Shown in pieces: positions 16,386 through 60,679 of a stretch of 64,000 bases of DNA (positions within the stretch are counted from its first letter, which is position 1; every line of letters begins with the position of its first letter). The notes below the pieces were generated by a model that did not search any database, was not told the DNA's origin, and saw only the letters and a list, made by a program, of their open reading frames with translations. Made by a program: the position numbers and the translations under genes. Source of the DNA: Isurus oxyrinchus (lineage: Eukaryota); contig JANJGN010000052.1 in the NCBI GenBank assembly GCA_026770705.1, forward strand, positions 2,666,001 through 2,730,000. Direction: 5' to 3'.

Positions 16386-17884
16386 CAGAGCTAGATAGAT
16401 TCTTGATTAACAATGGGGTGAAAGGTCATTGGGGGTAGGCAGGAATGTGAGGTTGAGGTGACAATCAGATCAGCCATGATCTTACTGAATGGCGGAGCAG
16501 GTTCGAGGGGCTGAGTGACCTACTCCTGATCCTAACTCAGATATCCATATGTTCTCAAAGGCAAATGGGGATGGGCAACAAATACTGGCCTAGTCAGCGA
16601 CACCAACATCCCTGAAATGAATAAGAAAAAAATGTATCAATCAATTAAATTTATTGATTAATCGAATTGAAATTCCTCCAGCTGCCGTGGTGGGATTTGA
16701 ACCCGTGCCTTCAAAGCATTCACCTGGGCCTCTGGATCACTGGCCTAGTGCCATTCCCATGGTGCGACTGTCTGCTATCATCATGGCTCTTTCACATCGA
16801 TGTGGAAGTCCTGATAACAGAAGCATTGGACGAGGTACAGAAAGGTGACAAATCAGGAGCTCCATTGCTCAATATGAACGGATAATAAAGATAAATGAAC
16901 ATAAACCTTCCAGTCGCTAATTAGGGAGTCACTGTGGAACCCATGAGTCCCTCGCAGCGCTATTGCAACCTTCTGGATCCCCAGTAGGGGACTCGGGGTG
17001 CAGCTGTGTCTTCCTCATCATTTGGAAAAGCCGGAATTGTTCGGGTGCCCCTTCAAACAGGCCGAAGATGCAGTGGGTGATGTCTCCCACAGGCCCTGGG
17101 AGACCTCCCCTGCCAATTTGTTTTGTAGCTTATTCTTCAACTGCGACATTGGATCAGCTTGAAAAAGGGTGGGGCTGAGGCAATGCCACCAGGTAAGCGT
17201 CTATTCCCTCACACGTCACCCCCCCCCCACCCCCGTAACCATCACAGTCCCTCCCATCGTGCTGGAGGAGCATAATGTGCACATTCCCCTCCTTCCAATC
17301 AGTCTCCTCCCTTCCTCTCTAATCCTTGATCTTATTGTGTTCGGGGTTGACATCCCAGTCCTCCTCCCTAGACTGTCTGATGTTGACATCCCAATGCCCC
17401 ATGTAGACCTGACCTCTCTCCAACTAGAGGTCCATTGTACTGTGACTTACAGAGACCACCGGCCCCCCTCGATTCCCACCCCACCCCTACTCTCTATATT
17501 ACCTGCTCCCCACTGACAGGCTGCAGATGCCTCCCCTGACTGGGATTGTGCCACCTGCGGCCTAGTATCAAGCCACCCACCCCCAGGACCGACGTGTGTG
17601 AGGGACTGACCACGTCCTGCACACCATGCTGGGCACCACCAACCCAGGACTGCCAGGCTCTCCCCACCACACTGGACTGGGACTAGAATAGGCGTGCCAA
17701 GCACAGCTCTCTAAATCGTGGCGCAGACCCACAGCACTCGCAATGTTTTGTGGCCCGAATCCTTGCTGAGGAACTGCCCAGCACTAAAATCAAAACAACT
17801 GCAGATGCTGGAAATCCAAAACAGAAACAGAAACAGAAATACCTGGAAAAACTCAGCAGGTCTGGCAGCATCGGCAGAGAAGAA

Positions 17885-18730
17885 CTGAGGTAGTGCGGCA
17901 CTGTCGGAGGTTATGAACTGAGGGAGAGCTGCACTGTCGGAGGGTCTGAGCTGAGGGAGTGCTGCACGGTCGGAGGGTCTGAGCTGAGGGAGTGCTGCAT
18001 GGTCGGAGGGTCTGAACTGAGGGAATGCTGCACTTTCGGAGGGTTTGAACTGAGGGAGTGCTGCACTGTCGGAGGCTCTGAAATGAGGGAGTGCTGCACT
18101 GTTGGAGGGTTTGAACTGAGGAAGTGCTGCACTGTCGGATGGTTTGAACTGAGGAAGTGCTGCACTGTCGGATGGTTTGAACTGAGGAAGTGCTGCACTG
18201 TCGGATGGTTTGAACTGAGGGATTGCTGCACTGTCGGAGGGTCTGAACTGAAGGAGTGCTGCACTGTCGGAGGGTTTGAACTGAGGGAGTGCTGCACTGT
18301 CGGAGGGTTTGAACTGAGGGAGTGCTGCACTATCGGAGGGTATGAACTGAGGGAGAGCTGCACTGTCGGAGGGTTTGAACTGAGGAAGTGCTGCACTGTC
18401 GGAGGGTCTGAACTGAAGGAGTGCTGCGCTGTCGGAGGGTCTGAACTGAGGGAGTGCTGCACTGTTGGAGGGTCTGAAATGAGGGAGTGCTGCACTGTCA
18501 GAGGGTCTGAACTGAGAAAGTGCTGCACTGTCAGAGGGTCTGAACTGAGAGAGTGCTGCACTGTCGGAGGTTCTGAACTGAGGGAGTGCTGCACTGTCGG
18601 AGGGTTTGAACTGAGGGAGTGCTGCACAGTCGGAGGGTCTGAACTGAGGGAGTGCTGCTCTGTCGGAGGGTTTGAACTGAGGGAGTGCTGCATTGTCGGA
18701 GGGTCTGATCTGAGGGAGTGCTGCACTGTC
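17885..18730. repeat. 30-bp minisatellite variant (gtcggagggtctgaactgagggagtgctgcact)
   Basis: About 28 tandem units; source of spurious long ORFs. Confidence 0.95.
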
Positions 18731-19461
18731 TAAAGAACATTGTACAAATTGCACAAAATTTAATCTGATGCCTGTGTCTCATGCTAACATGAAGTTCATG
18801 CACACAACAGGAATATTTCTCTCTGTTTCTCTGCAGCAAGACAGCTTTGGTATCACACCACCCACTGGCAAGAGTGTGCAGCTACAATGTGACATGTTTA
18901 CATTGGAAATTTCTATTATAAAGATGGACAGAGGAATTCATCTGATTGGAATACGTGACAACAGGAAGCTATGTCTTTGAGCCAAGAATTTTGCAGCAAA
19001 ACAAGAATTTTAATCTTTAAATATCTACAGAACAGGCTGAGCATTTTAATCACTTGAGTTAATCAATGTAATTTTATTCATAAGCCAAATGCTTCTTACA
19101 ATCTATCGCAGCATGAAAAAGGTGCAGCATTCAGAAAGCACATTCCAATCAGAGAACAGAGTTTAGCAACGGCACATTTCTGTTCATTCCTACTCGATGA
19201 ACAATTTCAAAAGGAAATTGGACGGAAATTGGAAATAAATTTGCAGGGATACGGGGATAGAGCGGGGGATGGGACTGATTGCATTGCTTTACAGAGAGAC
19301 AGCATAGACTCAATGGGCCAAATGTCCTCCTCCATTGCTGGAATGACTCGATGATACGGAGATGATTCTAACCAGGACACTGACCAGTTTCTTTACAACT
19401 TAACACAACATCACACGTTATTTGTCCGCACTGACTGACCAGATTGTTGCTGTACAAAGCT

Positions 19462-19601
19462 TCAAACAGTCTGTCGACTTCCTTTCACTGTTTGTCTCTC
19501 CCAGACACAGACTCCAGCGATAGTGATAACCACAGCCACAAGGAATATCACAGCTCGTATTCCCAGGATCAGGATCACGTGCAGAATCTCTCCTCCACTG
19601 T
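19462..19601 (-). CDS. Siglec A TM/cytoplasmic exon with intramembrane Arg
   Basis: SGGEILHVILILGIRAVIFLVAVVITIAGVCVWERQTVKGSRQTV*; acceptor ttctctag; stop at 19462-19464. Confidence 0.85.
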
Positions 19602-22600
19602 CTAGAGAACACACAGAAAGAAATCATCACTGACTCTCCGCTTTCAATCTCTCACTCTGGCTGAACAATCAAGCTTCATATCACTGCAACATTTGCTGTA
19701 ATATTGACCCATCCACTGGGATTCAATGTGGAATGAATGTTTTCATTGTAAACACTCTAAGAGTGGACAATCGGTACTTTCCCCTTAGCGTGGAACATTG
19801 GTGAGAATGGATCATTGTGCTGTTGGACTCCCTGTCCAATGTTTCTCTCCATCGCTGTGTACAGGATTGTGCTGTAGAAAATTCTGGAAACGTTTAGTGC
19901 AGGGTGGAAATCCATCTCGGACGTGTGTGCGAATTGGGCAGGATCGAGATGGACTCCCCCACGGACATACACCCCCCGCTTAATAAACAGTTCCAATCTT
20001 TACCCAGAGAGAGGGGAGAATGTGGAACTCGCTCCCACAGGGAGTGGTCGAGGTGAATAGTAGCAAATTAGGAAGTGAAATTGCTTGAAAAGCTTGGAGA
20101 TGCAAGGGTTAAGTGTTACCGTGCTACCACTGGTGGGAGAGTGTAACTACAGTGTGACGTTTACATAGGCAATCCCCATTATGAACATGGACATCATGTG
20201 AAAAATGGGCACTGGAAAGCTGAGAACTTGATGTAAGCTTTTCACCAACAGGAATTCCCTTCCTAAACCTCTCCACTTCCCTCTTATTCTCAGATACTCA
20301 AACAAAATTTCACACAAAATCACGTAAGGAGGAATTGGGACTGGTGACTGGTCAAAGAGTTAGATTTCAGGAAGGTTCTTAAAGTAGGATAGAGGGTTGG
20401 AGAGGCAGAGAGTATCTGTGAGTATCTCTGTGCATCTGAGTGTCTGTAATAGACTTTGCAATTTCCATATTCTTCCATAAATATGAAAGGGAACACAAAT
20501 CCCAGAATCCAGGTCAACTCTCCGGTGCAGCACTGAGGGAGGTCAGGTAATCCACAGGGGAGTATGTGCTAGTGTGTTTGTGAGTGTGTCTTTGTGTGTG
20601 CTCATAGATGTGGGATTGTTTGTCTGCAGGTGTCTATTTAAGGCTGTATATTTATGTGTGTTTTTGTAGTGTTTCAATCTGAGAGAGATGTTGAAGTTTG
20701 TCTTAACTAACGTTCCACAGTGATGGTTATGAACCCCTCCACTGCTCCATGTTCATTCTCTGAGCACACTGATAGTCTCCAGTGTCCCTGGATGTAACTG
20801 TGAGGAATCACCAACCACAGCTCATTGTTGGAACTTGTTCTGTTCATTGTGATATTCAGATGTCAGGACCGGACTCAACAAGACAGATTGCAGGTTTACC
20901 AACAGAAAGTGAACAACAATTTATATTTAAAGGGAAGAAAGTGCAGGTTAATCAGCAAGTGGTCTCTGATTGGAGGAGGTGTTGCCATGGAAAATAATGT
21001 GTGTGAGATGTAAAGTTTAGACAGCTTGTCCCTTCATTCAGCAATAATCAAATAAAGATCAGTTAACTTCTATCGACTGTGAAGCACTTTGAGAGGCCTT
21101 AGAATGTGGACACTGAGAACGGGCTGCACTGTCAGAGGGTCAGCGCTGAGGGAGTGCTGATGTAGAATGAAGGGTGTCTGTACTTACCTTGCACAGTTAG
21201 TACGAGGGTCCGCTCCGATGAAACAGATGGATATCTCACTCTGCAGCTGAGAGTGTGTCCGTGGTGTTTGAGTGATGGGGTCAGGGTCAGAACAGAAGTA
21301 TAGGTCAGAGTGACACCATGCTGAGTTACAGTGTTTGAGACTGATCCAGGTACGTCAGTGGGAGTGTCCCAGGTTAAGACAGGTGCTGCTGTTCCATTGC
21401 ACGTTGTGTTGAAGGTGCAGCTTACATCCACAGGCTTTCCTGCAATAATTTCAGCAGGGAATATCGTGGGTTTATCTGTGAAATCTAACAGACAGAGAAT
21501 GGATCCTTTTAGAGAAATATAACGTGAAGCATCAGTTCAAATAGAAATCACAGTCCCACAAGAGAAAGCACTTTTACAAGGATGATATCAGAACTGAGAG
21601 GTTACAATGATCAGGAGAGAATTTCCTGCTTTGAGACTTTGGTGTTTCTGTCTCTCAGCTTAATACACGTTCACTCCGAGACACTTGAACTGATAATAGT
21701 GGGTGAGGGTGAAGGAGCAGACCAGAGTTTGGAGTGCACTACCCCATCATTCACTCAGCGATCTGGGCCATTTATTACTTTGCAATTTGTGGGAGCTTGC
21801 TGTGCGCAAATTGGCTGTTGTGTTTCTCACATTACAACAGTAACTACAATTCAGGAATCAGCTCATTGACTGTGAAGTGATTTGGCCCGTGCTGAGATGG
21901 TGAAAGGTGCTACAGAAATGTGAATCTTTCTTCTGTCGCTATGTCAGACTTCGAGTCAGGATTAGAGAGATCGATGGGAGTGGATAACCTGATAACATTG
22001 ATGGACACAGTCAATACATTTAATCATTGATATTAAAGTGAGTATTAGAGGTTGCTTTAGGAGTGAACTGGAAGCTATCACCAGGTTATTGAGAATCAGA
22101 CAGTGTGTTATAATAAGCTGTGTTTTGTGTTAATATGTAAACGTCACAGTTTGTGTTATTTCCCATTGAGTGTTGGATGTGAATTGTTGAGTAATTATAA
22201 CACAGCACTTACCAGAAACGTGAAGCTGGGTTACAGGGTAATAGTTATGGCTCGGACCATTGTCAAATTCTATTCTGAAAAAATAAGGTCCTGCATCTTC
22301 CCGTGTGATGTTGTTTATAATCAGGGAACAGTCGCCATCTTTCAGGTCTCCAGACAGCCGGGTCCGATGGTGGTACCGTGGTAACTCGTGACTGTGATTC
22401 TTGGAGTGAAAGGCTACAGACGATGTTCCCCGTTTCTCGTTATTAAACCAGACTCCACCTCGCAGTTGGTTTTCCAGACACGATGGATAACTGTAGTGAC
22501 ATGGAATCTGTACACACGAACCTTCCTGCGCTGTCACCTCTCGTGGAGTGTCACCTTTCCACTCTTGTGAGGGTTCAGCTGGGGAGAGAAATCTCAATAT

Positions 22601-25600: not shown

Positions 25601-28600
25601 AAACTAACACTGTTCAGATGATGCTGCAAAGCCATTGCAAGTGATTCTCTGGCTACGATGAGATGGATAAGAATGGAGCCAGGGGAGAGCAGTCCCACCC
25701 AGCTGGACGACAGTGGAGAGGTGTTGGAGGAGGATGGTGTGGTCGATCGTGTCAAAGGCTGCAGACAGATCGAGAAGGACGAGGAGGGAAAGTTGACCTT
25801 TGTCACAGTCACACAGGATGCCATTTGTGACCTTGATAAGAGCTGTTTCAGCACAGTGGCTGGGGTGGGAACCTGATTGGAGGGATTCAAACATGGAGTT
25901 CCGGGAAAGATGGGAACGGATTCGGGAGATGGAAACAGGTTGCAGGACTTTGTAGGGGAACGAGAGGCTGGAGATGGGACGGGGGTTTACACGGACAGTG
26001 TGAGGGGTGGAAGGTGTAGTGGGGAGGAGACACTTCACTCAGGGGGGAGGTGTCATCACCCCTCAGCTTGGTTTACGTTACAGCTATGATGTGGATTCAA
26101 TCACACACAATAAGCTCATGGATCTGGGAGTAGAAATAGACAAATCATTAAAAATAGTGACGCTGGTTAACACGGCCAAAAAACAAGCAAATCAAACACT
26201 ATTATTTCCCGTTGAGTGTTGGATGTGAATTGTTGAGTAATTATAACACAGCACTTACCAGAAACGTGAAGCAGGGTGTCAGGATAGTTGCTGTAACTAT
26301 TGTTGCCGTCAAATTCTATTCTGAAATAATAATAACCTGCATCTCCCCATGTGATGTTGTTTATAATCAGGGAACAGTCGCCATCTTTCAGGTCTCCAGA
26401 CAGCCGGGTCCGATGGTGGAACCGTGTTAACTCGCGATTGTGATTCTTGGAGTGAAAGGCTATGATCCCTCTAGACCTTGTATTCCATGTATTCCATGTG
26501 TACCATTTCACATACCAGATTCCGACACGTGCTCTCCCGACTAAACGTGCTGGATAACTGTAATTACATGGAATCTGTACACACGAACCTTCCTGCGCTG
26601 TCACCTCTCGTGGAGTGTCACCTTTCCACTCTTGTGACAATCCAACTGGGGAGAGAAATATCAATATTTAACTCTGTGTGTTTTGACGATCCACTAGACT
26701 CGATATCCACCCCCTCCTTCACTGGGGCACAGTGGCTGCAGTGTGGACCATCTACAGGACACACATGGAACTCCCCAAGGTTTCACAATGGATGGGAGAG
26801 AATCCTGGAAACAGGAGTGGACAAGTTCATTCTACATTGGCTGATGGTCCTCAGGACCCTGTTTGTGCACAAGCCTGCTATCCAACAGAACTGAAGTTGG
26901 GGAAAATCCATTTGGAATTCCATTGTCCGGGGCATTGTGTTAACTTGCTGGGTTTGTTTTAAATCTAAAATCTATTTTTGGTCTGTTGCCTTAAAGGGAG
27001 TGTAACTGGGAGTCAGGTTAATTAGGAATTTTAGGAGTTATTATAGCTGTCATTGTAGTCTTATGTATGTGCTTGAAATCTTTTATTTTTGTGACAAATA
27101 TTTTAATTTATTTTTTTAAATCTCTAAAGATCTTGGTGGACTTATTGCTTCTGAATTCAGTGCACACATCTCATAATAAATACAAATTGCAAATTCATTA
27201 TGATCGTGTGACCACCTTTCTCTCATGGACTTGGTCTGCCTGGGTCACATCACCTGCCAAGTGATAACACTGTTGTAAAATGCCTTTCAGGGACAGCAGC
27301 ATGACATCACTCGAGGGGAAGTGTGTCATGTGATTTTTCAGAACTGGGGTTGGCTTAAGGAAGTTCTCTGTGTATTTGTGTGCGTTAGACATAAGGTCTA
27401 TCTTTCAGTTCAAGTTTAGTTTGTATTTCTGTATTTGGGTGTTTTGAAAAGGGGGAACTTGAGTTTTGGTTTCACTTTGGAAGAAGCCGCCTATCTAATG
27501 AGTTTTTATAACTCTTGAAGGGAAGTCAAAACAAACACGAGTTAGAAGAAACTGTGCTGTTGCCTAGCAACAGTGATCCAGGGAGAAAGACCCACAGAGA
27601 CAGAGAAAAACAGAAAAGTACTTTCAGTTCTGTTGAAAGGAGTTTCCAGGAGAAGCAGCAAAGGAGCGGGACAGATAGTCAGTCCCAAAGTAAAGAAGAA
27701 GCCAAAACTATCGAGTGGAACAGGAGAACGGGCCCAAGAAAACCTTCTAGTCAAATCTGAAAAAGGCCCTGTTAAGTGAAGTTAAGAGTGAGGAGCAGAA
27801 GAAGGCTCCAAACATAAAGGGAGAAAGCAGCAGGACACAGACCTAAAGCAAAATAGGCTTGCGAGAAGCCAGAAGATCCTAGGAGACACCACAGGTTGGT
27901 GACTCATTACTACGGCCATGTGAAGCCATGGTGTTCCATTGACACGGCTGAGCATTGGAGAGACAGGGCGTGGAAGGAAGGCTGAATGCACGTGGCGATC
28001 CAGGGGGCAGGAACATGGGAAGGAGAGTTTGAAATAGTGAAAGTGGACCCTTGTGGAAGGTGTATGAGTGAAAGTGTCATGTTGGAGAAGATTCCAAAGC
28101 GAGTTCTTGGAGAGTGGAGATTGGAAACCCTCATATGGATATCTCAGTTCATTGAGACAGGTTGGCGGACAGTGTAACAAGCGTCTGGGGTCAGATGAGG
28201 AGGGAGACATAGCATTTGTTTCAAGTGGGCTCTGTCACTTAGTTTAAGATTCTGGTGTCCCTGACCACAGGTCGTCTATTGGTTTACATCGACTGTGTAC
28301 TTAGTGTGAACATGATAGTATAAGATAGTTATTGTAACTTGTGTTATTTTTGTGAATCTGTATATATCTGCAAAGATATAGGTCTGGGTGAAGGAGTAAT
28401 GTAATATAGTTTGTCTTTCCTAGTTTAATAAATGTTTTATTCTTTTGTTAGAAGTTCATCAGATGATTCCTGAGACTCTGTTCAGTAGCTGCACTCCACA
28501 TTCCTAAATAAAAAATAAAAGTTAGGACCTATCAAGCTGAGTTCCACCCTGGGATCTGACTTGCCCAGTAGTAACATCAGCTGGGATGATAACACCATCC

Positions 28601-31600: not shown

Positions 31601-31980
31601 CCCTGTCACTGGCTGAACTACACTGACTCCCAGTCCAGCAATGACTCAATTTTCAAATTCTCATAATCGATTTCTTACCCCACCATCCCCCCTCTACACT
31701 CCCGATCCCTGTAACCTCCTCCAACCCTAAAACCCTCTGAGATCTCTGCTCTCCTCCAATTCTGCTGTCAGACAGGGAGTCAGTGTATATCACTGAGCAC
31801 AGGGGTGATGGGTGAATGGGACTTGGTGTGAGTTTGTACACTGGCTCACTGCTGAATCGGTTCCCAATCACAGCTCAATAAGAATGATCTTTTACAAAGA
31901 CTATTCACCATAAACCTGTCCGAGCTGACGATGATATTACCTTGGAGAAGAGACAGGAGGAAATAGGATTTCCCGATCAT
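19462..31980 (-). CDS. Siglec-like receptor A: L(31941-31980)-V1(26259-26645)-V2(22213-22578)-C2(21188-21484)-TM(19462-19601)
   Basis: All exons open with phase-1 GT-AG junctions; Siglec V hallmarks (CxxIPC, DCSL, YFFR essential Arg, no F-strand Cys); assumes the dead half exon at 20712-20864 is skipped. Confidence 0.7.
20712..20864 (-). pseudogene. 5'-truncated third Ig exon (copy A) with compensating frameshifts
   Basis: HLNITMNRTSSNNELWLVIPH...ENEHGAVEGFITITVE; no N-terminal half or usable acceptor; donor GTTAGT. Confidence 0.75.
21188..21484 (-). CDS. Siglec A C2-set exon
   Basis: DFTDKPTIFPAEIIAGKPVDVSCTFNTTCNGTAAPVLTW...LSCRVRYPSVSSERTLVLTVQ; 297 bp, phase 1/1. Confidence 0.9.
22213..22578 (-). 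CDS. Siglec A V-set exon 2
   Basis: EWKGDTPREVTAQEGSCVQIPCHYSYPSCLEN...GDCSLIINNITREDAGPYFFRIEF...LHVS; 366 bp. Confidence 0.9.
22690..23460 (+). mobile_element. CR1 LINE 3' fragment
   Basis: YYLNGERLQNAVQRDLGVLVHESQK...; LWNSLPQRAVEA; 3' tail. Confidence 0.85.
24000..26000 (-). mobile_element. L2 LINE 3' portion with embedded 32-bp minisatellite (24300-25020)
   Basis: LSLLVLLDLSAAFDTIDH, LQLNIGKTEAIVF and YFHLRNIARL motifs; L2 tail near 24000-24300. Confidence 0.85.
26259..26645 (-). CDS. Siglec A V-set exon 1 (divergent loops)
   Basis: ...SCVQIPCNYSYPARLVGRARVGIWYVKWYTWNTWNTRSRGIIAF...DAGYYYFRIEFDGNNSYSNYP...; 387 bp, intact splice sites. Confidence 0.88.
26890..28594. mobile_element. 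Probable LTR-like repeats (two adjacent pieces ending ...gataaca)
   Basis: TG start at 27271, AATAAA near 28427, similar 3' ends at ~27268 and ~28594; no clear target duplication. Confidence 0.35.
29380..30560 (+). mobile_element. Decayed Gypsy gag(-pol) fragment in Siglec A intron
   Basis: KFPSLNW...EFRMFKQR; SIDHFISRCREKG; CGRCG...CPAF...ACGRKGH zinc knuckles. Confidence 0.75.
31941..31980 (-). CDS. Siglec A leader exon (MIGKSYFLLSLLQ-G)
   Basis: acaATG, hydrophobic leader, phase-1 GTAAT donor; acceptor tttcag at 32023-32028. Confidence 0.85.
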
Positions 31981-32430
31981 TGTCCACTCCCAGATATTTC
32001 ATAAGCTTCTGACTCTCAAACTCTGAAAGAGAAAGGAGTTAATGAGACCTCACCTCTTGTCCGACAGCTCTCAAGAGATCAGAACTGCTTTTGGACAATG
32101 TCTTAACAGACTAATTTGATTCTCTGTGGGATGACAGGTGCTCTGCAGAGAGTTACAAGGCTTTAAGAAAGAAAAACATTGAAGGATTTGCATTTCTATA
32201 GCACCTTTCACCAGCTCAGGACGTCCCCAAGCTCATGTCTCTGCACTTCCCTCATCCCTTGAGCTAGAAAGATGTTCTGTACAACAGACTTGAGTCTCAC
32301 ACCCAGATCTCAATAACCAGTAGAAATCTTTCAAAGGCATCAATCATTGGAATCTGTCTTTATAAAGTCACAACATCAACAAAGGACGGTGTTGGTCGTG
32401 GAAGTGAATTCCAGTCGTTCCGTTACTTAC

Positions 32431-32575
32431 CCAGGACCTGTCCGAATGCTCGCCTGGGGAGGAACTGCCCACACGCTCTGCTTGGGCTGAATGACCTCTT
32501 CCTGTGCTGCTCCCTCTGTGTGTTTAATTAGAAAGGGTGGATGTGTCACTGTGAGACAAAATGAGGAAGTGGGTA
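32431..32575 (-). promoter_or_regulatory. Putative first non-coding exon/promoter of Siglec A
   Basis: Minus-strand donor GTAAGT after 32431; second UTR donor near 32053; AAAATGAGGAAGTG ETS/PU.1-like site ending at 32571; repeated upstream of each leader. Confidence 0.5.
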
Positions 32576-34705: not shown

Positions 34706-35394
34706 AAAGTGCATTCTAGGCACTGCCCAAGGTTCCGCCTGATGTCCGTGTAACAACAACATCATGTACACGTCGAGAATATTTCTCACTGTGTCGGTGC
34801 AGCAAGACAGCTTTGGAATGGCACCACCACTGGCAGGAGTGTGAAACTACAATGTGACATGTTTACATGGGAAATTTCTATTATAAAGCTGGGCACAGGA
34901 ATTCGTATGATAGAACAAATGTGACAACATGAAGTAATGTCTTTGAGCCAAAAATTTGGCTTCAAAATAAGAATTTTAATCTATAAATATCTACAGAACA
35001 GGCTGAGCATTTTAATCACTTGAGTAAATCAATGTAATTTTATTCATAACACAAGCGCTTCTTACAATCTATCGCAGCATGAAAAAGGTGCAGCATTCAG
35101 AAAGCACATTCCAATCAGAGAACAGAGTTTAGCAACGTCACATTTCTGTTCATTCCTATTCGACCATGTTGGCTGCACACAGCCAGACAATGCCGTGGTT
35201 ATGATGTGTCCACACAGCAGGACTGGGGAGCACCAGGTATAAGGAAAAGTTTCAGCTTGCTGAGGAGAAGAAGGAGAATCTCTCGTTCCAGGTTTCTCTC
35301 CGTACATTAAGAAGCAGGCATGCCGATGTTTCATTGCACTCTGTCTGCTGATGGGAGTCCGCTTGGAAATTGCTGTTTGTGCTGATGGAAAGAA

Positions 35395-36000: not shown

Positions 36001-36121
36001 GAATGCCTCTCTGATACGAAGGTGATTCTAACCAGGACACTGACCAGTTTCATTACAACTTAACCCAACATCACACGTTATTTGTACGCACTGACTGACC
36101 AGATTGTTGCTGTACAAAGCT

Positions 36122-36261
36122 TCAAACAGGCTGTCGACTTCCTTTCACTGTTTGTCTCTCCCAGACACAGACTCCAGCGATAGTGATAACCACAGCCACA
36201 AGGAATATCACAGCTCGTATTCCCAGGATCAGGATCACGTGCAGAATCTCTCCTCCACTGT
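36122..36261 (-). CDS. Siglec B TM/cytoplasmic exon with intramembrane Arg
   Basis: Near-identical to 19462-19601; tail ...VKGSRQPV*. Confidence 0.8.
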
Positions 36262-37382
36262 CTAGAGAACACACAGAAAGAAATCATCACTGACTCTCCA
36301 CTTTCAATCTCTCACTCTGGCTGAACAATTAAGCTTCATATCACTGCAACATTTGCTTTAATCTTGACCCATCCACTGGGATTCAATGTGGAATGAATGT
36401 TTTCATTGTAAACACTCTAAGAGTGGACAATCGGAACTTTCCCCTTAGCGTGGAACATTGGTGAGAATGGATCATTGTGCTGTTGGACTCTCTGTCCAAT
36501 GTTTCTCTCCATCGCTGTGTACAGGATTGTGCTGTAGAAAATTCTGGAAACGTTTAGTGCAGAGTGGAAATCCATCTCGGACGCGTGTGTGATTCGGGCA
36601 GGATCGAGATGGACTCCCCCACGGACTTACACCCCCCGCTTAATAAACAGTTCCAATCTTTACCCAGAGAGAGGGGAGAATATGGAACTCGCTCCCACAG
36701 GGAATGGTTGAGGTGAGTAGTAGCGAATTAGGAAGTGAAATTGCTTGAAAAGCTGGGAGATGCAAGGGTTAAGTGCAACCGTGCCACCACTGGTGGGAGA
36801 GTGTAACTACAGCATAACGTTTACATAGGCAATCCCCATTATGAACAAGGACATTGGACATCATGTGAAATATGTGCACTGGAAAGCTGAGAACTTGATG
36901 TAAGCTTTTCACCAACAGGAATTCCCTTCCTAAACCTCTCCACCTCTCACTTACTCTCAGATACTCAAACAAAATTTCACACAAAATCACATAAGGACGA
37001 GTTGGGACAGGTGACTGGTCAAAGGGTTAGGTTTCAGGAAGCTTCTTAAAGGAGGATAGAGAGTTGGAGAGGCAGAGAGTATCTGTGAGTATCTCTGTGC
37101 ATCTGAGTGTCTGTAATAGACTTTGCAATTTCCATATTCTTCCATAAATATGAAAGGGAACACTAAACCCAGAATCCAGGTCAACTCTCCGGTGCAGCAC
37201 TGAAGGAGGTCAGGTAATCCACAGGGGAGTATGTGATAGTGTATTTGTTTGTGAGTGTGTCTTTGTGTGTGCTCATAGATGTGGGATTGTGGGTCTGCAG
37301 GTGTCTATTTAGGTCTGTATATTTATGTGTGTTTGTGTAGTGTTTGAATCTGTGAGAGATGTTGAAGTCTGTGTACACTCAC

Positions 37383-37535
37383 GTTCCACAGTGATGGTTA
37401 TGAATCCCTCCACTGCTCCATGTTCATTCTCTGCCACACACTGATAGTCTCCAGTGTCCCTGGATGTAACGTGAGGAATCACCAACCACAGTTCATTGTT
37501 GGAACTTGTTCTGTTCATTGGGACATTCAGATGTC
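37383..37535 (-). pseudogene. 5'-truncated third Ig exon (copy B)
   Basis: MNRTSSNNELWLVIPHVTSRDTGDYQCVAENEHGAVEGFITITVE, donor GTGAGT; N-terminal half missing. Confidence 0.78.
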
Positions 37536-37857
37536 AGGACCGGACTCAACAAGACAGATCGCAGGTTTACCAACAGAAAATGAAGAACAATTTATAATTA
37601 AAGGGAAGAGAGTGCTGATTGGGTGGCAAGTGGTCTCTGATTGGAGGAGAGTTGCCATTGAAAATAATGTGTGCGAGCTGTAAAGTTTAGACAGCTTGTC
37701 TCTTCATTCAGCAATAATCAAATAAAGATCAGTTAACTTCTATGGACTGTGAAGCATTTTGAGAGGCCTGAGAATATGGATACTGAGAACGGGCTGCACT
37801 GTCAGAGGGTCAGCGCTGAGGGAGTGCTGATGTAGAATGAAGGGTGTCCGTACTTAC

Positions 37858-38147
37858 CTTGCACAGTTAGTACGAGGGTCCGCTCCGATGAAACAGATGG
37901 ATATCTCACTCTGCAGCTGAGAGTGTGTCCGTGGTGTTTGAGTGATGGGATCAGGGTCAGAACAGAAGTATAGGTCAGAGTGACACCATGCTGGTGTTTG
38001 AGACTGATCCAGGTACGTCAGTGGGAGTGTCCCAGGTTAAGACAGGTGCTGCTGTTCCATTGCACGTTGTGTTGAAGGTGCAGCTTACATCCACACGCTT
38101 TCCTGCAATAATTTCAGCAGGGAATATCGTGGGTTTATCTGTGAAAT
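37858..38147 (-). pseudogene. Frameshifted Siglec C2 exon
   Basis: 290 bp versus 297; 7-bp deletion (agttaca) at ~37993. Confidence 0.88.
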
Positions 38148-39458
38148 CTAACAGACAGAGAATGGATCCTTTTAGAGAAATATAACGTGAAGCATCAGTT
38201 CAAATAGAAAGCACAGTCCCACAAGAGAAAGCAATTTTACAAGGATGATATCAGAACTGAGAGGTTACAATGATCATTAAAGAATTGTCTATTTTTACAC
38301 TTGTTGAATCTCTGTCACTCAGATTAATACACTCTCACTCAGTGACCCTTGATTTGACCAGACTGGGTGAGGGTGGAGGAACAGCTCACAGCTCGGGGAG
38401 AACAGACTCAGCATTTGGAAAAGGATATAGAGACACTGGAGAGGGTGGTAAAAAGCTTCACAAGGATGATCTCAGCAATGTGAGGCTTTACCTATCAGGA
38501 GAGGATGTACAGGCTGGGTCTCTGTTCTCTTGAACAGAGAAGGTTGAGGGGTGACCTCATTTGATCTTTGAAGTAATGAAAGGTTTTGATCGAGTAGACA
38601 TGGAGAGAGTGTTTCCACTCCTCACTTTGAACAAAACCAGAGGCTGACAATATAAGATTGTCACTAATAAATCCAATGGGGAATTCAGGAGAAACTTCTT
38701 TAACCAGAGAGTGGGGAGAATGTGTACTTCAAGAATCACTTCATTGGCTGTGAATTGATTTAGGATGGTCCTGAGGTGGTGAAAGGCGCTATAGAAATGC
38801 GAGACTTGGTTTTGTATTTTGAAAGCAGGTTTCCAAGGATGAGATGGGAACTGAGAAGTAACAACAATCAGCAGCAACTTTCCTATTTTCAAACTTGGTG
38901 GGGAATGTGTCACTGAGCTGAATACACTTTCACTCCCAGACCCTTGAATTGCCAACACTGGGGTGTGGGTGATGGAGCAGCCCACAGCTCATGGAACCCT
39001 GGCTCATCATTCTCTCAGAGATCTGGGTCACTGATCCCATTGCTCTCTGTGGGAGCTTCCTGTGTACAAACTCACTGCCACGTTAGTGACTATACTTCAA
39101 GAATTTCTTCATTGTCTGTGAAGTGATTTGAAGTTTGTTGAGGTGGTGAAAGGCGCTATAGGAATGCACGTCCTTCTTTTGTCAAATTGTTAGACTTTTA
39201 AACAGGATTAGAGAGACTGATGGGAGTGGATAGCCTGATAGCATTGATGGACACAGTCAATACATTTAATCATTGACATTAAAGTGATTATTAGAGGTTG
39301 CTTTAAGACTGAACTGGAAGCAATCACCAGGTTATTGAGAATCAGACAGTGTGTAAAAATAAACTGTGTTTTGTGTTAATATGTAAACGTCACAGTTTGT
39401 GTTATTTCCCATTGAGTGTTGAATGTGAATTGTTGAGTAATTATAACACAGCACTTAC

Positions 39459-39823
39459 CAGAAACATGAAGCTGGGTTACAGGATAGTAGTTGTATCTTT
39501 TCCTGCCGTCAAATTCTATCCTGAAAAAATAAGGTCCTGCATCTTCCCGTCTGATGTTGTTTATAATCAGGGAACAGTCGCCATCTTTCAGGTCTCCAGA
39601 CAGCCGGGTCCGATGGTGGAACCGTGGTAACTCGTGACTGTGATCCTTGGAGTGAAAGGCAATGGGAGAACCCAATTTGTGTGTTTCTTTATTACACCAG
39701 ATTCCATCTCGTGGTTTGTTTTCCAACTCTACTGGATAACTGTAACGAAATGGAATCTGTACACAGATTCCTGCGCTGTCACCTCTCGTGGAGTGTCACC
39801 TTTCCACTCTTGTGACAGTCCAG
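39459..39823 (-). pseudogene. Frameshifted Siglec V exon
   Basis: 365 bp versus 369; net 4-bp loss at ~39766 giving an early TAG; B-strand Cys codon changed to TTT. Confidence 0.88.
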
Positions 39824-44407: not shown

Positions 44408-47400
44408 ATTGCCCAGTTAGTACGAGGGTCCGCTCCGATGAAACAGATGGATATCTCACTCTGCAGCTGAGATTGTGTCCGTGGTGTTTGAGTGATGGGA
44501 TCAGGGTCAGAACAGAAGTATAGGTCAGAGTGACACCATGCTGAGTTACAGTGTTTGAGACTGATCCAGGTACGTCAGTGGGAGTGTCCCAGGTTAAGAC
44601 AGGTGCTGCTGTTCCATTGCACGTTGTGTTGAAGGTGCAGCTTACATCCACACGCTTTCCTGCAATAATTTCAGCAGGGAATATCGTGGGTTTATCTGTG
44701 AAATCTAACAGACAGAGAATGGATCCTTTTAGAGAAATATAACGTGAAGCATCAGTTCAAATAGAAACCACAGTCCCACAAGAGAAAGCACTTTTACAAG
44801 GATGATATCAGAACTGAGAGGTTACAATGATCAGGAAAGATTTTCTTGCTCTTTGGCAGTAGTGTTTCTGTCTCTCAGCTTAATACACGTTCACTCCGAG
44901 ACATGTGAATTGAGAACACTGGATGAGAGAAGAGGCTCAGACCAGAGATTGGAGTTAAAAGCAGACTACTGCGGATGCTGGAAATCTGAAACCAAAATAA
45001 AAATTGCTGGAAAGACTCAGCAGGTCTGACAGTATCAGTGGAGAGGAAGACAGGGTTAACGTTTCGAGTCCGTATGACTCTTCATCAGACCAGAGGTTTG
45101 AGTTCACTGGCTTCTCATTTCCTCAGCGATCTGGGTGATTTATTACATTGTGTTTGTTGGATCTTGCTGTGCACAAACTGCCTGCTGTGTTTAACATCTG
45201 TGACCACAATTCAGGAATAATTTCATTGGCTGTGAAGGGATTTGGATCCTCCTGAGGTGGTAAATTGCGCTGCAGAAATGCACATCTTTCTTTTATCGAT
45301 ACGTCAGACTTTTAAACAGGACAGGAGAGATTGATGGGTGTGGATAACCTGATAATACAGTTCATGCTTTTCATCATTGATATTAAAGTGTGTATTAGAG
45401 GTTGCTTTAGGACTGAACTGGAAGCTATCACCAGGTTATTGAGAATCAGACAGTGTGTTATAATAAGCTGTGTTTTGTGTTAATATGTAAATGTCACAGT
45501 TTGTGTTATTTCCCATTGAGTGTTGAATGTGAATTGTTGAGGAATTATAACACAGCACGTACCAGAAACGTGAAGCTGGGTTACAGGGTAATAGTTATGG
45601 CTCGGACCATTGTCAAATTCTATTCTGAAAAAATAAGGTCCTGCATCTTCCCGTCTGATGTTGTTTATAATCAGGGAACAGTCGCCATCTTTCAGGTCTC
45701 CAGACAGCCGGGTCCGATGGCGGAACCGTGGTAACTCGTGACTGTGATCCTTGGAGTGAAAGGCTATGGGAGCCCAGGGGATCTGTTCCTCATTATTAAA
45801 CCAGACTCCACCTCGCGGTTGGCTTTCCAAATGTGATGGATAACTGTAATGACATGGAATCTGTACACACGAACCTTCCTGCGCTGTCACCTCTCGGGGA
45901 GTGTCACCTTTCCACTCTTGTGACAGTCCAACTGGGGAGAGAAATATCAATATTTAACTCTGGAAGGTTTGTAGATCCACTAGACTCGATATCCACTCCC
46001 TCCATCACTGGGGCACAGTGGCTGCAGTGTGGACCATCTACAGGACACACAAGGAACTCCTCAAGGTTTCACAATGGATGGAAGAGAATCCTGGACACAG
46101 GAGTGGACAAGTTCATTCTACATTGGCTCATGGTCCTCAGGACCCTGTTTAGTGAAGCCAGTGAGACAGTGTCACTGTGCCTTGTATTATAATGCTCCTG
46201 TATAGCCCCTTGGATTGTTTTTTTTTACAGTTAAGGCGCTATGTAAATATAATCTATTGCTCTCTGCTCATCTGGACCATTTGGATTCTTCATTTCAAGC
46301 GGCCTGGTGACAGCTTCATGTTCAGTCCAAATGCAGCCTCTAATTATCACTTTAATGTCAATGATTAAATGTGACCCAACACTGTGTCTACAAGACACAC
46401 CAACTGAGATCCATTCAGTGCTGATTTACAAGACAGGACAATGGATTAGGAGCCCTCAGAACTCCCCCCATTATCACCGTCATGAATCACTAATTAGCCT
46501 AACATTCCTGTCTGCTCTTCAACACAGCTGATTGGTTAATCTGGTTCAATATGATTGGTGCACTTTAGACCTTCATTGTCTGAGGAATCTCTTTGGATCC
46601 TCATTGTTTCAGGAATCTCTTTGGATCCTCATTGTCTAAGGAATCTCTATGGATCCTCATTGTCTAATGGATTATTTCTGATCCAAACCCCATATTGTTG
46701 TATTGTTGATTCCGATGCAGCATTGTAGACTGACTTGTCCCCAAGCTCAGCACTGACCCTACTCCAGCAGACACTGTGAAACACACTAACAAAGCGCCTC
46801 TCGCCTGAGCTCTGCATGTGTCAAGAGCAAAGACAAATATACAAACTGAATATTGACCCCTTTACACACAGACAGCTTTACCTTCCTTCTCTCTTTCAGT
46901 TATCTTGCTCCCTTATTGAAGTATCTAGCAAGGTGAGAATGGACAGGAAGTGTGACACTGAACAGCCTGTCTATTCTAGGAGCTGCTGTGTTGTCTTCAT
47001 GGGAAATTCTGACAAAATCAGCAAAAGATACAAAATTAGGATATTGCTATCAGGCACCTAACATAAGGAGAGACTTCATCCTCCAGCTTTTATCCCTGAT
47101 TTTCTACTCAACCTTTTACCACCCTTCCCCCCATCCACACTGACTTCCATAGGCTCCCAGTCAAGCAGTGCCTCCATTTTAAGATTCTCATGCTCAATTC
47201 CCAATCCCCCCAACCCCCTCTCCAGTCCCTACCTCTGTAACCTCATCCAGCCCCTTCACCCCTCTGAGATCTCTGCTCTCCTCCAATTCTGCTGTCAGAC
47301 AGGGAGTCAGTGTATATCAGTGAGCACAGGGGTGATGGGTCAATGGGACTCGGTGTGAGTTTGTACACTGGCTCACTGCTGAATCTGTTCCCAATCACAG

Positions 47401-47507
47401 CTCAATAAGAATGATCTTTTACAAAGACTATTCACCATAAATCTGTCCGAGCTGACGATGATATTACCTTGGAGAAGTGACAGGAGGAAGTAAGATTTCC
47501 CGATCAT
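44408..47507 (-). CDS. Siglec cassette B: L(47468-47507)-V(45563-45931)-C2(44408-44704); nearest TM exon at 36122-36261
   Basis: Open exons of 40, 369 and 297 bp, phase 1; V donor is GTACGT; essential Arg YFFR retained. Confidence 0.8.
44957..45088 (-). mobile_element. Penelope-type end with minimal hammerhead-like core (copy at ~55887-56020)
   Basis: Minus strand CTGATGA-A-GAGTC-atacg-GACTC-GAAAC-GTTA; flanked by imperfect cagaccagag...gagtt duplication; empty site in copy A at ~21718. Confidence 0.6.
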
Positions 47508-48319
47508 TGTCCACTCCCAGATAATTCCTCAGCTTCTAACTCTGATTTTCTGAAAGAGAAAGGAGTTAATGAGACCTCACCTCTTGTCCGACAGCTCTCG
47601 AGAGATTAGAACTGCTTTTAGACAATGTCTTCACGGATCTAATTTGATTCTCTGTGGGATGATAGGTGCTCTGCAGAGAGTTACAAGGCTTTAAGAAAGG
47701 AAAACATTGAAGGACTTGCATTTCTATAGCACCTTTCAACACCTCAGGATATCCCCAAGCTCATGTCCCTTGAGCTAGAAAGATGTTCTGTACAACAGAC
47801 TTGAGTCTCACACCCAGATCTCAATAATCAGTAGAAATCTTTCAAAGGCATCAATCATTGGAATCTGTCTTTATAAAGTCACAACATCAACAAAGGACGG
47901 TGTTGGTCGTGGAAGTGAATTCCAATCGTTCCGTTACTTACCCAGGACCTGTCCGACTGCTCGCCTGGGGAGGAACTGCCCACACGCTCTGCTTGGGCTG
48001 AATGACCTCTTTCTGTGCTGCTCCCTCTGTGTGTTTAATTAGAAATGGTTGATGTGTCACTGTGAGTCAAAATGTGGAAGTGGTCACTTTATGAGAATGC
48101 AACTGATGTTTAGAGTTTTTTGAAGCTGTTAACCCTTTGCGTTCTGGACTTGTGATGATATTTCTGCTCAAAAGTGGAAAGTCATTGACCAGGAATTCTC
48201 CTGTGGGTCATTGGGTTTCAAACCCTCTCTCGCTGTCTGAGTGAGAAGGTCGTCTGTTCGAGATTCATTTGGCAAAATTCAGACTGACAAACCAGACCGG
48301 CAATCGGTGTCAGGACTGA

Positions 48320-55338: not shown

Positions 55339-58300
55339 ATTGCACAGTTAGTACAAGGGTCCGCTCCGATGAAACAGATGGATATCTCACTCTGCAGCTG
55401 AGAGTGTGTCCGTGGTGTTTGAGTGATGGGGTCAGGGTCAGAACAGAAGTATAGGTCAGAGTGACACCATGCTGAGTTACAGTGTTTGAGACTGATCCAG
55501 GTACGTCAGTGGGAGTGTCCCAGGTTAAGACAGGTGCTGCTGTTCCATTGCACGTTGTGTTGAAGGTGCAGCTTACATCCACACGCTTTCCTGCAATAAT
55601 TTCAGCAGGGAATATCGTGGGTTTATCTGTGAAATCTAACAGACAGAGAATGGATCCTTTTAGAGAAATATAACGTGAAGCATCAGTTCAAATAGAAATC
55701 ACAGTCCCACACGAGAAAGCATTTTTACAAGGATGATATCAGAACTGAGAGGTTACAATGATCAGGAAAGATTTTCTTGCTCTTTGGCAGTAGTGTTTCT
55801 GTCTCTCAGCTTAACACACGTTCACTCCGAGACATGTGAATTGAGAACACTGGATGAGAGAAGAGGCTCAGACCAGAGATTGGAGTTAAAAGCAGAATAC
55901 TGCGGATGCTGGAAATCTGAAACCAAAACAAAAATTGCTGGAAAGACTCAGCAGGTCTGACAGTATCAGTGGAGAGGAAGACCAGGGTTAACGTTTCGAG
56001 TCCGTATGACTCTTCATCAGACCAGAGGTTTGAGTTCACTGGCTTCTCATTTCCTCAGTGATCTGGGTGATTTATCACCTTGTGGTTTGTTGGATCTTGC
56101 TGTGCACAAACTGCCTGCTGTGTTTTACATCTGTGACTACAATTCAGGAATAATTTCATTGGCTGTGAAGGGATTTGGATCCTCCTGAGGTGGTAAATTG
56201 CGCTGCAGAAATGCACATCTTTCTTTTATCGATAAGTCAGACTTTTAAACAGGACAGGAGAGATTGATGGGAGTGGATAACCTGATAATACAGTTAATGC
56301 TTTTAATCATTGATATTAAAGTGAGTATTAGAGGTTGCTTTAGGACAGAACTGGAAGCTATCACCAGGTTATTGAGAATCAGACAGTGTGTTATAATAAG
56401 CTGTGTTTTGTGTTAATATGTAAACATCACAGTTTGTGTTATTTCCCATTGAGTGTTGAATGTGAATTGTTGAGTAATTATAATACAGCACTTACCAGAA
56501 ACCTGAAGCTGGGTTACAGGGTAATAGTTTTGGCTCGGACCATTGTCAAATTCTATCCTGAAAAAATAATGTCCCGCATCTTCCCGTCTGATGTTGTTTA
56601 TAATCAGGGAACAGTCGCCATCTTTCAGGTCTCCAGACAGCCAGGTCCGATGGTGGAACCGTGGTAACTCGTGACTGTGATCCTTGGAGTGAAAGGCTAT
56701 GGGAGCCCAGGGAATCTGTTTCTCATTATTAAACCAGACTCCACCTCGCGGTTGGTTTTCCAAATGTGATGGATAACTGTAATGACATGGAATCTGTACA
56801 CACGAACCTTCCTGCGCTGTCACCTCTCGTGGAGTGTCACCTTTCCACTCTTGTGACAGTCCAACTGGGGAGAGAAATATCAATATTTAACTCTGGATGG
56901 TTTGTGGATCCACTAGACCCGATATCCACTCCCTCCATCACTGGGGCACAGTGGCTGCAGTGTGGAACTTCTACAGGACACACAAGGAACTCCCCAAGGT
57001 TTCACAATGGATAGAAGAGAATCCTGGACACAGGAGTGGACAAGTTCATTCTACATTGGCTCATGGTCCTCAGGACCCTGTTTAGTGAAGCCAGTGAGAC
57101 AGTGTCACTGTGCCTTGTATTATAATGCTCCTGTGTAGCCCCTTGGATTGTTTTTTTTTACAGTTAAGGCACTATGTAAATATAATCTATTGCTCTATGC
57201 TCATCTGGACCATTTGAATTCTTAAGTTCAAGTGGCCTGGTGACAGCTTCATGTTCAGTCCAAATGCAGCCTCTAATTATCACTTTAATGTCAATGATTA
57301 AATGTGACCCAACACAGTGTCTACAAGACACACCAACTGAGATCCATTCAGTGCTGATTTACAAGACAGGACAATGGATTAGGAGCCCTCAGAACTCCCC
57401 CCATTATCACCGTCATGAATCACTAATTAGCCTAACATTCCTGTCTGCTCTTCAACACAGCTGATTGGCTAATCTGATTCAATCTGATTGGTGCACTTTG
57501 TATCTTCATTGTCTGAGGAATCTCTTTGGATCCTCATTGTCGAAGGAATCTCTTTGGATCCTCATTGTTTAAGGAATCTCGTTGGATCCTCATTGTCTAA
57601 GGGATTATTTCTGATCCAAACCCCATATTGTTGTATTGTTGATTCCGATGCAGCATTGTAGACTGACTTGTCCCCAAGCTCAGCACTGACCCTACTCCAG
57701 CAGACACTGTGAAACACACTAACAAAGCGCCTCTAGCCTGAGCTCTGCATGTGTCGAGAGAAAGACAAATATACAAACTGAATATTGACCCCTTTACACA
57801 CAGACAGCTTTACCTTCCCTCTCTCTTTCAGTTATCTTGCTCCCTTATTGAAGTATCTAGCAAGGTGAGAATGGACAGGAAGTGTGACACTGAACAACCT
57901 GTCTATTCTAGGAGCTGCTGTGTTGTCTTCATGGGAAATTCTGAATAAAATCAGCAAAAGACACATTTCAGGATATTGCTATCAGACACCTAACATAGGG
58001 AGAGACTTCATCCTCCAGTTTTTATCCCTGATTTTCTACTCAACCTTTTACCACCCTTCCCCCCATCCACACTGACTTACATAGGCTCCCAGTCAAGCAG
58101 TGCCTCCATTTTAAGATTCTCATGCTCAATTCCCAATCCCCCCAACCCCCTCTCCAGTCCCGACCTCTGTAACCTCATCCAGCCCCTTCATCCCTCTGAG
58201 ATCTCTGCTCTCCTCCAATTCTGCTGTCAGACAGGGAGTCAGTGTATATCAGTGAGCACAGGGGTGATGGGTGAATGGGACTTGGTGTGAGTTTGTACAC

Positions 58301-58439
58301 TGGCTCACTGCTGAATCGGTTCCCAATCACAGCTCAATGAGAATTATCTTTTACAAAGACTATTAACCATAAATCTGTCCAAGCTGACGATGATATTACC
58401 TTGGAGAAGTGACAGGAGGAAGTAAGATTTCCCGATCAT
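55339..58439 (-). CDS. Siglec cassette C: L(58400-58439)-V(56496-56864)-C2(55339-55635); no TM exon of its own
   Basis: Open exons with canonical splice sites; HYFFR essential Arg; near-identical to cassette B. Confidence 0.8.
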
Positions 58440-60679
58440 TGTCCACTCCCAGATATTTCCTCAGCTTCTAACTCTGAAGTTCTGAAAGAGAAAGGAGTTA
58501 ATGAGACCTCACCTCTTGTCCGACAGCTCTCGAGAGATCAGAACTGCTTTTAGACAATGTCTTCACAGACTAATTTGATTCTCTGTGGGATGATAGGTGC
58601 TCTGCAGAGATTTACAAGGCTTTAAGAAAGAAAAACATTGAAGGACTTGCATTTCTATAGCACCTTTCAACACCTCAGGATATCCCAAAGCTCATGTCCC
58701 TGCACTTCCCTCATCCCTTGAGCTTGAAAGATGTTCTGTACAACAGACTTGAGTCTCACACCCAGATCTCAATAATCAGTAGAAATCTTTCGAAAGCATC
58801 AATCATTGGAATCTGTCTTTATAAAGTCACAACATCAACATAGGACGGTGTTGGTGGTGGAAGTGAATTCCAATCGTTCCGTTACTTACCCAGGACCTGT
58901 CCGACTGCTCGCCTGGGGAGGAACTGCCCACACGCTCTGCTTGGGCTGAATGACCTCTTCCTGTGCTGCTCCTCTGTGTATTTAATTAGAAAGGGTTGAT
59001 GTGTCTCTGTGAGACAAAATGTGGAAGTGGTCACTTTGTGAGAATGCAGCTGATGTTTTGAGTTTTTGAAGCTGTTAACCCTTTGCGTTCTGGACTTGTG
59101 ATGATAATTCTGCTCAAAAGTGGAAAGTCATTGAATTTCTGCTGTGTGTCATTATGTTTCAAACCCTCTCTCTCTCTCTGAGTGAGAAGGTCGTCTGTTC
59201 GAGATTCATTTGGCAAAATTCAGACTGACAAACCAGACCGGCACTCGGTGTCAGGACTGAGAGTCCTGCACTGTCAGAGGGTCATTCCTGAGGGCGTGCT
59301 GCACTGTTGGAGGGTCAGTACTGAAGCAGTGCTGCACTGTCAGAGGCTCAGTATTGTGGGAGTGCTGCACGGCCAGAGGGTCAGTACTGAGGGAGTGCTG
59401 CACTGTCAGAGGTCAGTACTAAGGGAGTGCTGCACTGTTGGAGGGTCAGTACTGAAGCAGTGCTGCACTGTCAGAGGCTCAGTATTGCGGGAGTGCTGCA
59501 CTGCCAGAGGGTCAGTACTGAGGGAGTGCCGCACTGTTGGAGGATCAGTACTGAGGGAGTGCTGCACTGTTGGAGAATCAGTACTGAGTGCTGCACTGTC
59601 AGAGGGTCAGTACTGAGGGAGTGCTGCACTATTGGAGAATCAGTACTGAGGAAGTGCTGCACTGTCAGAGGATCAAATTATTTCTGATCCAAACCCCATA
59701 TTGTTGTATTGTTGATTCCGATGCAGCATTGTAGACTGACTTGTCCCCAAGCTCAGCACTGACCCTACCCCAGCTGACACTGTGAAACACACTAACCAGG
59801 CGCCTCTAGACTGAGCTCTGCATGTGTTGGAGGTGCCGCTGTGGTGGGTTCATGACCTTCACCATCCGCTTCACTGAGTTTCGGTTAAAACTGAACTGGA
59901 ACACATACTAAACGCTGATGGAAACCATCACTTCCTCTTCTCCAACATGAAGAGTTTCAGCAGAAGAGGTAAACTGTTGCTGAAAAGGAACTTTCTTCAT
60001 CATATCACAGAATCACACAGAATAGCAGGAGGCCATTCATGCCATCTTGGCTGTGCTAGCTCTTTAAAAGAAGCACACAATTGGTTTCAATCCACCTCTC
60101 TTCCCCCATCGTCCTTCAAATTCTTCCTATTCCAGATTGAATCCAAATTCATGAATATAAATCCCCTCAGATGGGAGTAACCATCACTGAGCAGGCAGGT
60201 TAGGTTTGATTGTACACAGCGAGTTGCTGTGATCTGGAAGGTGCTGCCTGAAAGGGCGGTGGAAGCAGATTCAATAGGATCTTTCAAAATACTTGCAGAG
60301 TGTGAGAGAATGGGAGATTGGGACCAATTGGATATCTGTCCCAGGAGACCAGGACAGGGACAATGGGCTGAGTGGCCTCTTTCTGTGCTGTTTGATTCTG
60401 TGGTTTTCTAATATTTATCTGCGCTGCAGATCAGAGACAAACAGGAAACAATAAACTTCTGACCTTTCCACACAGGCTGAATTGTCATCTCTTTATTTTC
60501 AGCCAGTTTGCTTAATTCTTGTGGTTTGGTGGTGAAACTGTGCAGCAAGTGTGAGTGTTGGGTTGTAGATCTGTCTATTCTGACTGCTGCTGTGCTCATG
60601 GTGACTTCTCAATTACATGAGAGTCTCTGAGATCCTCCACACCCAAGGATTAAGGAGAGACTTCCAACGATTCAGGACG

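Follow-up and report, generated by a model that had tools for sequence, protein, structure and literature searches.

The window, by which we mean the whole 64-kb stretch of Isurus oxyrinchus DNA analysed here (64,000 nucleotides), carries on its minus strand a gene, hereafter gene A, whose intact frame of 409 amino acids runs leader-V-V-C2-TM with canonical splice sites throughout. The leader exon (31941..31980) contributes 13 codons and one further nucleotide and gives the same N-terminus as the named shark Siglecs P0018 and P0037; its splice lies outside the coverage of the contigs that were compared. It is followed by the N-terminal V-set exon (V1, 26259..26645), which has an F-strand Arg in the motif YYFR and no BC-loop Cys, by a second V-set exon (V2, 22213..22578) with the Siglec cysteines, an F-strand Arg in YFFR and an additional Cys in the BC loop, and by a C2-set exon (C2a, 21188..21484) whose BC-loop Cys aligns with that of CD33. 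Of a further Ig exon only a remnant is left (C2b, 20706..20864), which has lost its 5' half, bears two small indels (20764 and 20799), shows a loose contig end at 20864 and is skipped by splicing, and the gene ends in a 162-nt exon for the transmembrane (TM) segment and tail (19440..19601).

Read on the minus strand, positions 19601-19462 translate to (D)SGGEILHVILILGIRAVIFLVAVVITIAGVCVWERQTVKGSRQTV*, with the Arg codon at 19557-19555 and a TGA stop at 19464-19462, and this reading bears out the initial annotation, which had proposed an Arg inside the TM helix and a short, tyrosine-free tail without an ITIM. Seven apolar residues precede the Arg and 18 uncharged residues follow it, and the TM check that had been suggested places it inside the best Kyte-Doolittle window at every length used (19, 21, 23 and 25 residues, means 2.86-2.95); the tail after VCVW is 12 residues long with no Tyr at all. 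Since in relatives a Gln or His stands five residues ahead of the Arg, we place it near the top of the helix. The NxxR motif, with Asn three residues before the Arg, is absent, all copies and relatives examined having Leu/Ile-Leu-Gly-Ile-Arg instead. An AG acceptor precedes 19601, and 22 nt of 3' UTR separate the stop from a GTCAGT donor at 19439; a stop this close to the last exon junction should escape nonsense-mediated decay. An AATAAA match at 19073..19078 on the same strand is a candidate poly(A) signal for an unspliced 3' UTR.

The rest of the window holds similar cassettes, again on the minus strand. The TM exon of a second copy, copy B (36100..36261), had been described as the same, and indeed it differs by one residue only, but that residue makes its end RQPV* rather than RQTV*. 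The ectodomain exons of copy B (37380..39815) comprise a C2b remnant and frameshifted C2a (38145-37859) and V (39815-39460) exons, and at 35300..35381 lies the start of a 3' UTR exon, its end unmapped, to which B-type copies splice after the stop. At 44409..47510 a leader, a V exon (45923-45564) and a C2a exon (44702-44409), their frames open, form a set that could splice 8 kb onward to the TM exon of copy B, and a further leader, V (56856-56497) and C2a (55633-55340) at 55340..58440 have no TM exon of their own. Truncated beside retrotransposon-like frames on the plus strand, at 1470-1767, is another kind of Siglec-like V exon, which shares 29% identity with V2 and has eight copies in the surrounding 1.06 Mb. 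Most duplication blocks of the array are edged by a 33-bp minisatellite (17882-18730, 33287-34679, 43068-44196, 49645-51220, 54423-55116 and 60693-62617), which may seed unequal crossing-over.

Our evidence for splicing consists of assembled contigs from runs presumed to be RNA, which stand for the family and are not assignable to the gene A copy. The V-to-C2 (22213-21484) and C2-to-TM (21188-19601) joints were found in four of four runs from two studies, with the C2b remnant skipped, and joins from V to V in at least two of the four. When the TM exon was taken alone (four runs, four studies), loose ends of contigs fell at the acceptor in all four runs and at the post-stop donor in two, with one more just past the stop, one in the intron and none inside the coding part; one 850-nt contig covers the exon without any difference. 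The loose ends at 19440 in X1, X7 and X9 match 35352-35381, within the 3' UTR exon of copy B. Splicing out of the exon before its stop into ITIM-bearing exons, the outcome that the initial annotation had named as a refutation, was looked for and is seen in no contig from the four runs and four studies, and an internal donor before the stop is likewise used by none of them. The spliced family contigs have the short tail without an ITIM and come from two organisms, those of the second differing at two codons and keeping the Arg.

That the ectodomain is of the Siglec type, as had been supposed, is upheld by several lines of comparison. The V domain matches Pfam V-set and Ig_CD22, and its best PDB matches are MAG, sialoadhesin, Siglec-5, -8 and -10 and CD33 (E 1e-12 to 2e-10), with bit scores so close (MAG 51, sialoadhesin 48.5, Siglec-5 48, CD33 44) that they do not separate these relatives; the C2 domain matches CD33. 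YFFR, which holds the Arg essential to Siglecs, lines up with YYFR in MAG and YNFR in sialoadhesin, and alignment to MAG, sialoadhesin and CD33 brings the Siglec cysteine pattern into register, namely Cys on the B and E strands, none on the F strand, the extra Cys of the V domain and the BC-loop Cys of C2, the bonds themselves being predicted. A search with V2 returned 114 longer homologous proteins, 113 of them named from sharks and rays and labelled Siglec-like or CD33-like by NCBI's automatic naming, and a profile search for bony-vertebrate relatives named only sharks and rays among the 120 listed of its 224 matches. The F-strand Arg stands in both V exons of gene A and in 46 of the 54 intact V exons in the surrounding 1.06 Mb, and through it, we infer, the V domains of gene A may bind sialylated glycans. 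In that same region (contig C52 of the genome, G000, 1.8-2.86 Mb) other residues take its place in 7 of the 24 first V exons that are intact (Ser in three, Thr in three, Lys in one) and in 1 of the 30 internal ones.

The number of V exons per gene of the array ranges from 1 to 10: seven stand in tandem in an intact Arg-TM gene at G000:C52:1863727-1893665, and ten, one of them with a doubtful acceptor, in an ITIM-class gene at G000:C52:2275531-2301080. The additional BC-loop Cys follows position within the gene, occurring in 32 of 34 internal V exons of the array, where copies are non-independent, against 3 of 29 first V exons, and in 35 of 43 internal against 5 of 93 first V domains of database proteins. 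It aligns with the C2 position at which CD33 has its interdomain-bond Cys (C169, in the accessible portion of PMC7426717), and we infer a disulfide relay that would link each V domain to the next and lock tandem V domains head to tail. We also considered a mutually exclusive choice of V exons; the V-to-V joins and the position-linked Cys favour tandem inclusion.

The TM exon of gene A is one of a great many. The initial annotation had foreseen an expanded family, and the genome amply confirms this, with 238 candidates for the TM peptide, of which 150 were scored, all 98-100% identical and spread over 14 contigs; hand comparison added 40 further places, and by hand count 52 of the 150 lie on one 4.2-Mb contig, in both orientations and with distinct V sequences. 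The V exon gave 1072 candidates, 150 of them scored. These totals are perhaps inflated by haplotype duplicates, and the small contigs may include both haplotypes. We read 68 copies, 30 from the scored set (gene A included) and 38 of the 40 further places, and found the Arg in all 68 and the short Tyr-free tail in 63; the exceptions are one frameshifted copy and four in which a common deletion extends the frame far into repeat DNA. In these four (L184, L195, L196 and L197) the stop is lost and the frame continues for 155-177 residues into antisense repeat DNA, where it includes a match to the ITIM consensus (ILYTSI or SIYEKL) that is probably due to chance. That the copies are nearly identical within this genome does not prove selection, since the last 58 bases of the preceding intron vary as little.

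Homologs fall into three tail classes, and all three are at home in the array, which spans several megabases. Class A, to which gene A belongs, has the Arg-TM and short tail; class B has an uncharged TM and the motifs LLYANI and TEYAQI, of ITIM/ITSM type; class C combines an uncharged TM with three tail tyrosines in YxN context (YEN, YAN and YGN), which we take to be Grb2-type motifs. Class C Siglecs, found from Heptranchias to Scyliorhinus, constitute a third signalling class and occur at G000:C52:1969103, 2220407, 2336312 and 2603045, among other places. The 1.06 Mb surrounding the window contain 16 class A, 17 class B and 7 class C TM exons in alternating cassettes with the same V and C2 exons, the Arg being kept in 16/16 of class A, and the terminal (ITIM) exon of class B scored at at least 150 places on the array's contigs, as did the class C tail exons. 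Among class B terminal exons the proximal ITIM is present in 10 of 27 and TxYxxI in 27 of 27 (hand count); the TAG in most matches to the ITIM exon, which we had considered as a stop codon, is the splice acceptor. Many class B genes have doubled tail exon pairs (G000:C52:1929824-1935141, 2114333-2120027 and others), one with ITIM and TxYxxI and one with YANP and TxYxxI only, which are possible alternative 3' ends. A copy of the first class C tail exon stands at most 1.5 kb upstream of 39/39 leader exons, including that of gene A (32430..32523, minus; a sequence copy and possible 5' non-coding exon), and further copies of this cytoplasmic exon lie on the minus strand of the window at 48034-47918, 58970-58851 and 62788-62669; a 5' non-coding exon may have been captured by class C as a tail, or the reverse.

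Inhibitory partners had been expected elsewhere in the genome; they do exist, but interleaved in the same array. The suggested search for near-identical V domains linked to ITIM tails found a class B match of 78-97.5% identity for every one of the 16 intact class A V exons, and V1 of gene A is sister to the V1 of one class B gene (support 100/99, 84% at the amino-acid level). A tree of the 54 intact V exons, from which nine broken ones were excluded, mixes the classes, such that class A requires eight changes, at least five of them forced by strong branches, and does not come near to forming a single clade, and some V exons are 100% identical between genes. The class labels are nevertheless more clustered than in shuffles (0 of 500 as low), so that exchange of V exons between classes is partial. 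Positive selection in the V loops is unsupported, pN/pS being 0.85, 0.64 and 0.74, below one throughout, over 49 unique exons whose pairs are non-independent.

Beyond this genome, Carcharodon and two species of Scyliorhinus contribute the 7 Arg-TM proteins among the 114 homologs. When the TM peptide was compared with 1.84 billion representatives, ten matches emerged, nine with the motif GIRA and one a spurious repeat protein, the GIRA matches being Siglec-like, CD22-like and SLAM-like proteins of Scyliorhinus, Chiloscyllium, Hemiscyllium, Rhincodon and Mustelus. The Arg-TM is conserved across three shark orders, and GIRA is invariant in 15 of 15 aligned shark proteins in which neighbouring residues vary. 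Among the ray and skate proteins retrieved no Arg-TM was seen, and short-tailed ray members (P0011, P0092, P0094 and P0096) lack a TM charge. The TM exon is not a chance reading frame: it has a C2-to-TM splice joint, genome copies that are 98-100% identical, and an Arg that is kept in named shark proteins. A SLAM-like gene of the same genome (L217, G000:C21:89443592-89447640) has the same Arg-TM exon, at 70% identity over 230 nt that include about 90 nt of upstream intron, and because the intron is shared too, the comparison points to an exon made mobile by shuffling.

What, then, would such a receptor do? The product of gene A likely carries no signalling motif itself, and with an Arg in its TM it should borrow an ITAM adaptor; we regard it, with fair confidence, as an activating, adaptor-coupled Siglec-type receptor. 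The upper-helix Arg would pair with the aspartates of an adaptor dimer, probably FcR-gamma, and lead to cell activation. Arg-TM and ITIM genes would see the same ligands and pull in opposite ways, and the activating member would counter microbes that exploit the inhibitory one.

As to the adaptor, the position of the Arg inclines us, by a modest preference, to FcR-gamma or a zeta/gamma dimer. Macaque KIR with an Arg-TM reportedly use FcR-gamma, and exons of the zeta/gamma family score above the Pfam cut-off at three places in the genome; of the two that were read, we take one to resemble zeta and one FcR-gamma, judging from the human sequences. Two equal-scoring FcR-gamma-like TM exons lie on small contigs (G000:C1723:88553, the one of the pair that was read, and C1648:27629), and are a duplicate or two haplotypes. 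Complex prediction for the TM peptide with two FcR-gamma-like TM copies gave 0.14 and 0.13 (mark 0.34; without folded controls), which speaks neither for nor against. In the available parts of PMC13107469, CD89 engages the FcR-gamma dimer through an Arg close to its helix top, and NKp30 and NKp46 are assumed to do likewise with gamma/zeta dimers, NxxR being the motif reported for FcR-gamma-coupled TMs (PMC2413239, PMC4536121, in part), while the known activating Siglecs, Siglec-14 included, are reported to use DAP12 in what is accessible of PMC13358205 and PMC7226832. The rule invoked by the initial annotation, that an N-terminally placed TM Arg is typical of FcR-gamma coupling, is therefore a lead only, because NxxR is absent from the shark TM and Siglec-14 is reported to signal through DAP12.

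Activation through DAP12 or DAP10, as in mammalian Siglec-14, -15 and -16, is the alternative that survives best, unlikely as we consider it; the missing NxxR would suit it, and the TM residue of Siglec-14 is itself an Arg high in the helix. In activating Siglecs, moreover, it is a TM Lys or Arg that engages DAP12 (PMC6890642 and PMC13358205, as excerpted), whereas a search of the genome with a DAP10 profile, a weak test, gave no convincing match (best E 0.41). That there is no adaptor at all we think slightly less likely still, and less likely again that the protein is a non-signalling decoy, adhesion or uptake receptor, in which the Arg would sit at the outer membrane edge and the 18 apolar residues after it would serve as the anchor. 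The uncharged stretch speaks for this idea, and the ray members without a TM charge indicate that tail-less forms exist without an adaptor residue, but GIRA is invariant in the 15 shark proteins and kept after transfer to the SLAM-like gene, and seven apolar residues stand before the Arg in gene A. Least probable of all is that we are looking mostly at debris, an exon spread by segmental duplication and perhaps assembly redundancy with gene A a pseudogene, for although 11 of the 16 Arg-TM exons in the 1.06 Mb lack an intact leader-V-C2 path (5/16 intact-looking genes against 15/24 for the other classes, p = 0.11, from hand-corrected counts in which the leaders of three ITIM-class genes were fixed by eye), copy B is frameshifted, some V exons are wholly identical between genes and the small contigs may hold both haplotypes, gene A is intact, two organisms yield spliced family contigs, and the 52 places on a single contig, in both orientations, have distinct V sequences.

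The activating, adaptor-coupled reading of gene A has counterparts. Primate Siglec-5/14 and Siglec-11/16 likewise combine a near-identical V domain with one of two endings, an ITIM tail or a basic TM residue followed by a short tail, with exchange between partners (PMC13358205 and PMC6288428, in their accessible parts); the shark genes differ in belonging to a cartilaginous fish, in having more than 100 of each tail type against two pairs, in a third, YxN-tailed class, and in an Arg so high in the helix that it may point to FcR-gamma and not DAP12. An Arg near the TM top and a short tail are also features of CD89, LILRA, GPVI, OSCAR, NKp46 and Xenopus FCRL/SLAM receptors, and in Xenopus one TM type is common to the FCRL, LRC and CD2/SLAM families (excerpts of PMC4536121, PMC2413239 and PMC13107469). 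Unlike these FcR-gamma-coupled receptors, the shark TM lacks NxxR and is joined to a Siglec ectodomain, and the 1.84 billion-representative search, which returned shark proteins and the one spurious repeat protein, found no sequence kinship between them. Siglec-12 has two V domains ahead of its first C2 (PMC6288428, in part), whereas the shark genes have 1 to 10 tandem V exons, most with the Arg, and an extra BC-loop Cys in the internal ones. Chicken CHIR (over 100) and Xenopus XFL (at least 75) are large birth-and-death arrays of paired receptors (PMC2413239, in the portion available), built on KIR/FcR-type domains and not, as here, on a sialic-acid-lectin fold.

In the accessible part of PMC7226832 fish are said, from teleost data, to lack CD33-related Siglecs, and the available portions of PMC8455134 and PMC13262535 mention Siglecs only in passing. 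Our search, which covered journals other than subscription ones, listed nothing on the Siglec genes of sharks; the whale shark Supplementary file 9, which lists Siglec families, may bear on novelty. The logic of Siglec-5/14 is known, and what is new is the lineage, the scale and the tandem V domains with their predicted disulfide relay. Our broadest reading is a tentative one, held at somewhat less than even confidence: a paired Siglec system may have arisen independently in sharks, with several hundred genes divided among three signalling classes (Arg-TM activating, ITIM/ITSM inhibitory and YxN-tailed), its activating arm a mobile, FcR-gamma-coupled TM exon also found in SLAM-like and CD22-like receptors, and its rods of up to 10 disulfide-relayed V domains binding sialic acid multivalently. 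The array lets one ask whether FcR-gamma is selected by an Arg high in the helix even when NxxR is missing, whether unrelated receptors become activators on receiving a shuffled TM exon and whether tandem V domains add avidity. With more than 100 exons each of activating and ITIM/ITSM type, the shark array would place the paired sensing of sialic acid in the most ancient jawed lineage, through old descent or convergence.
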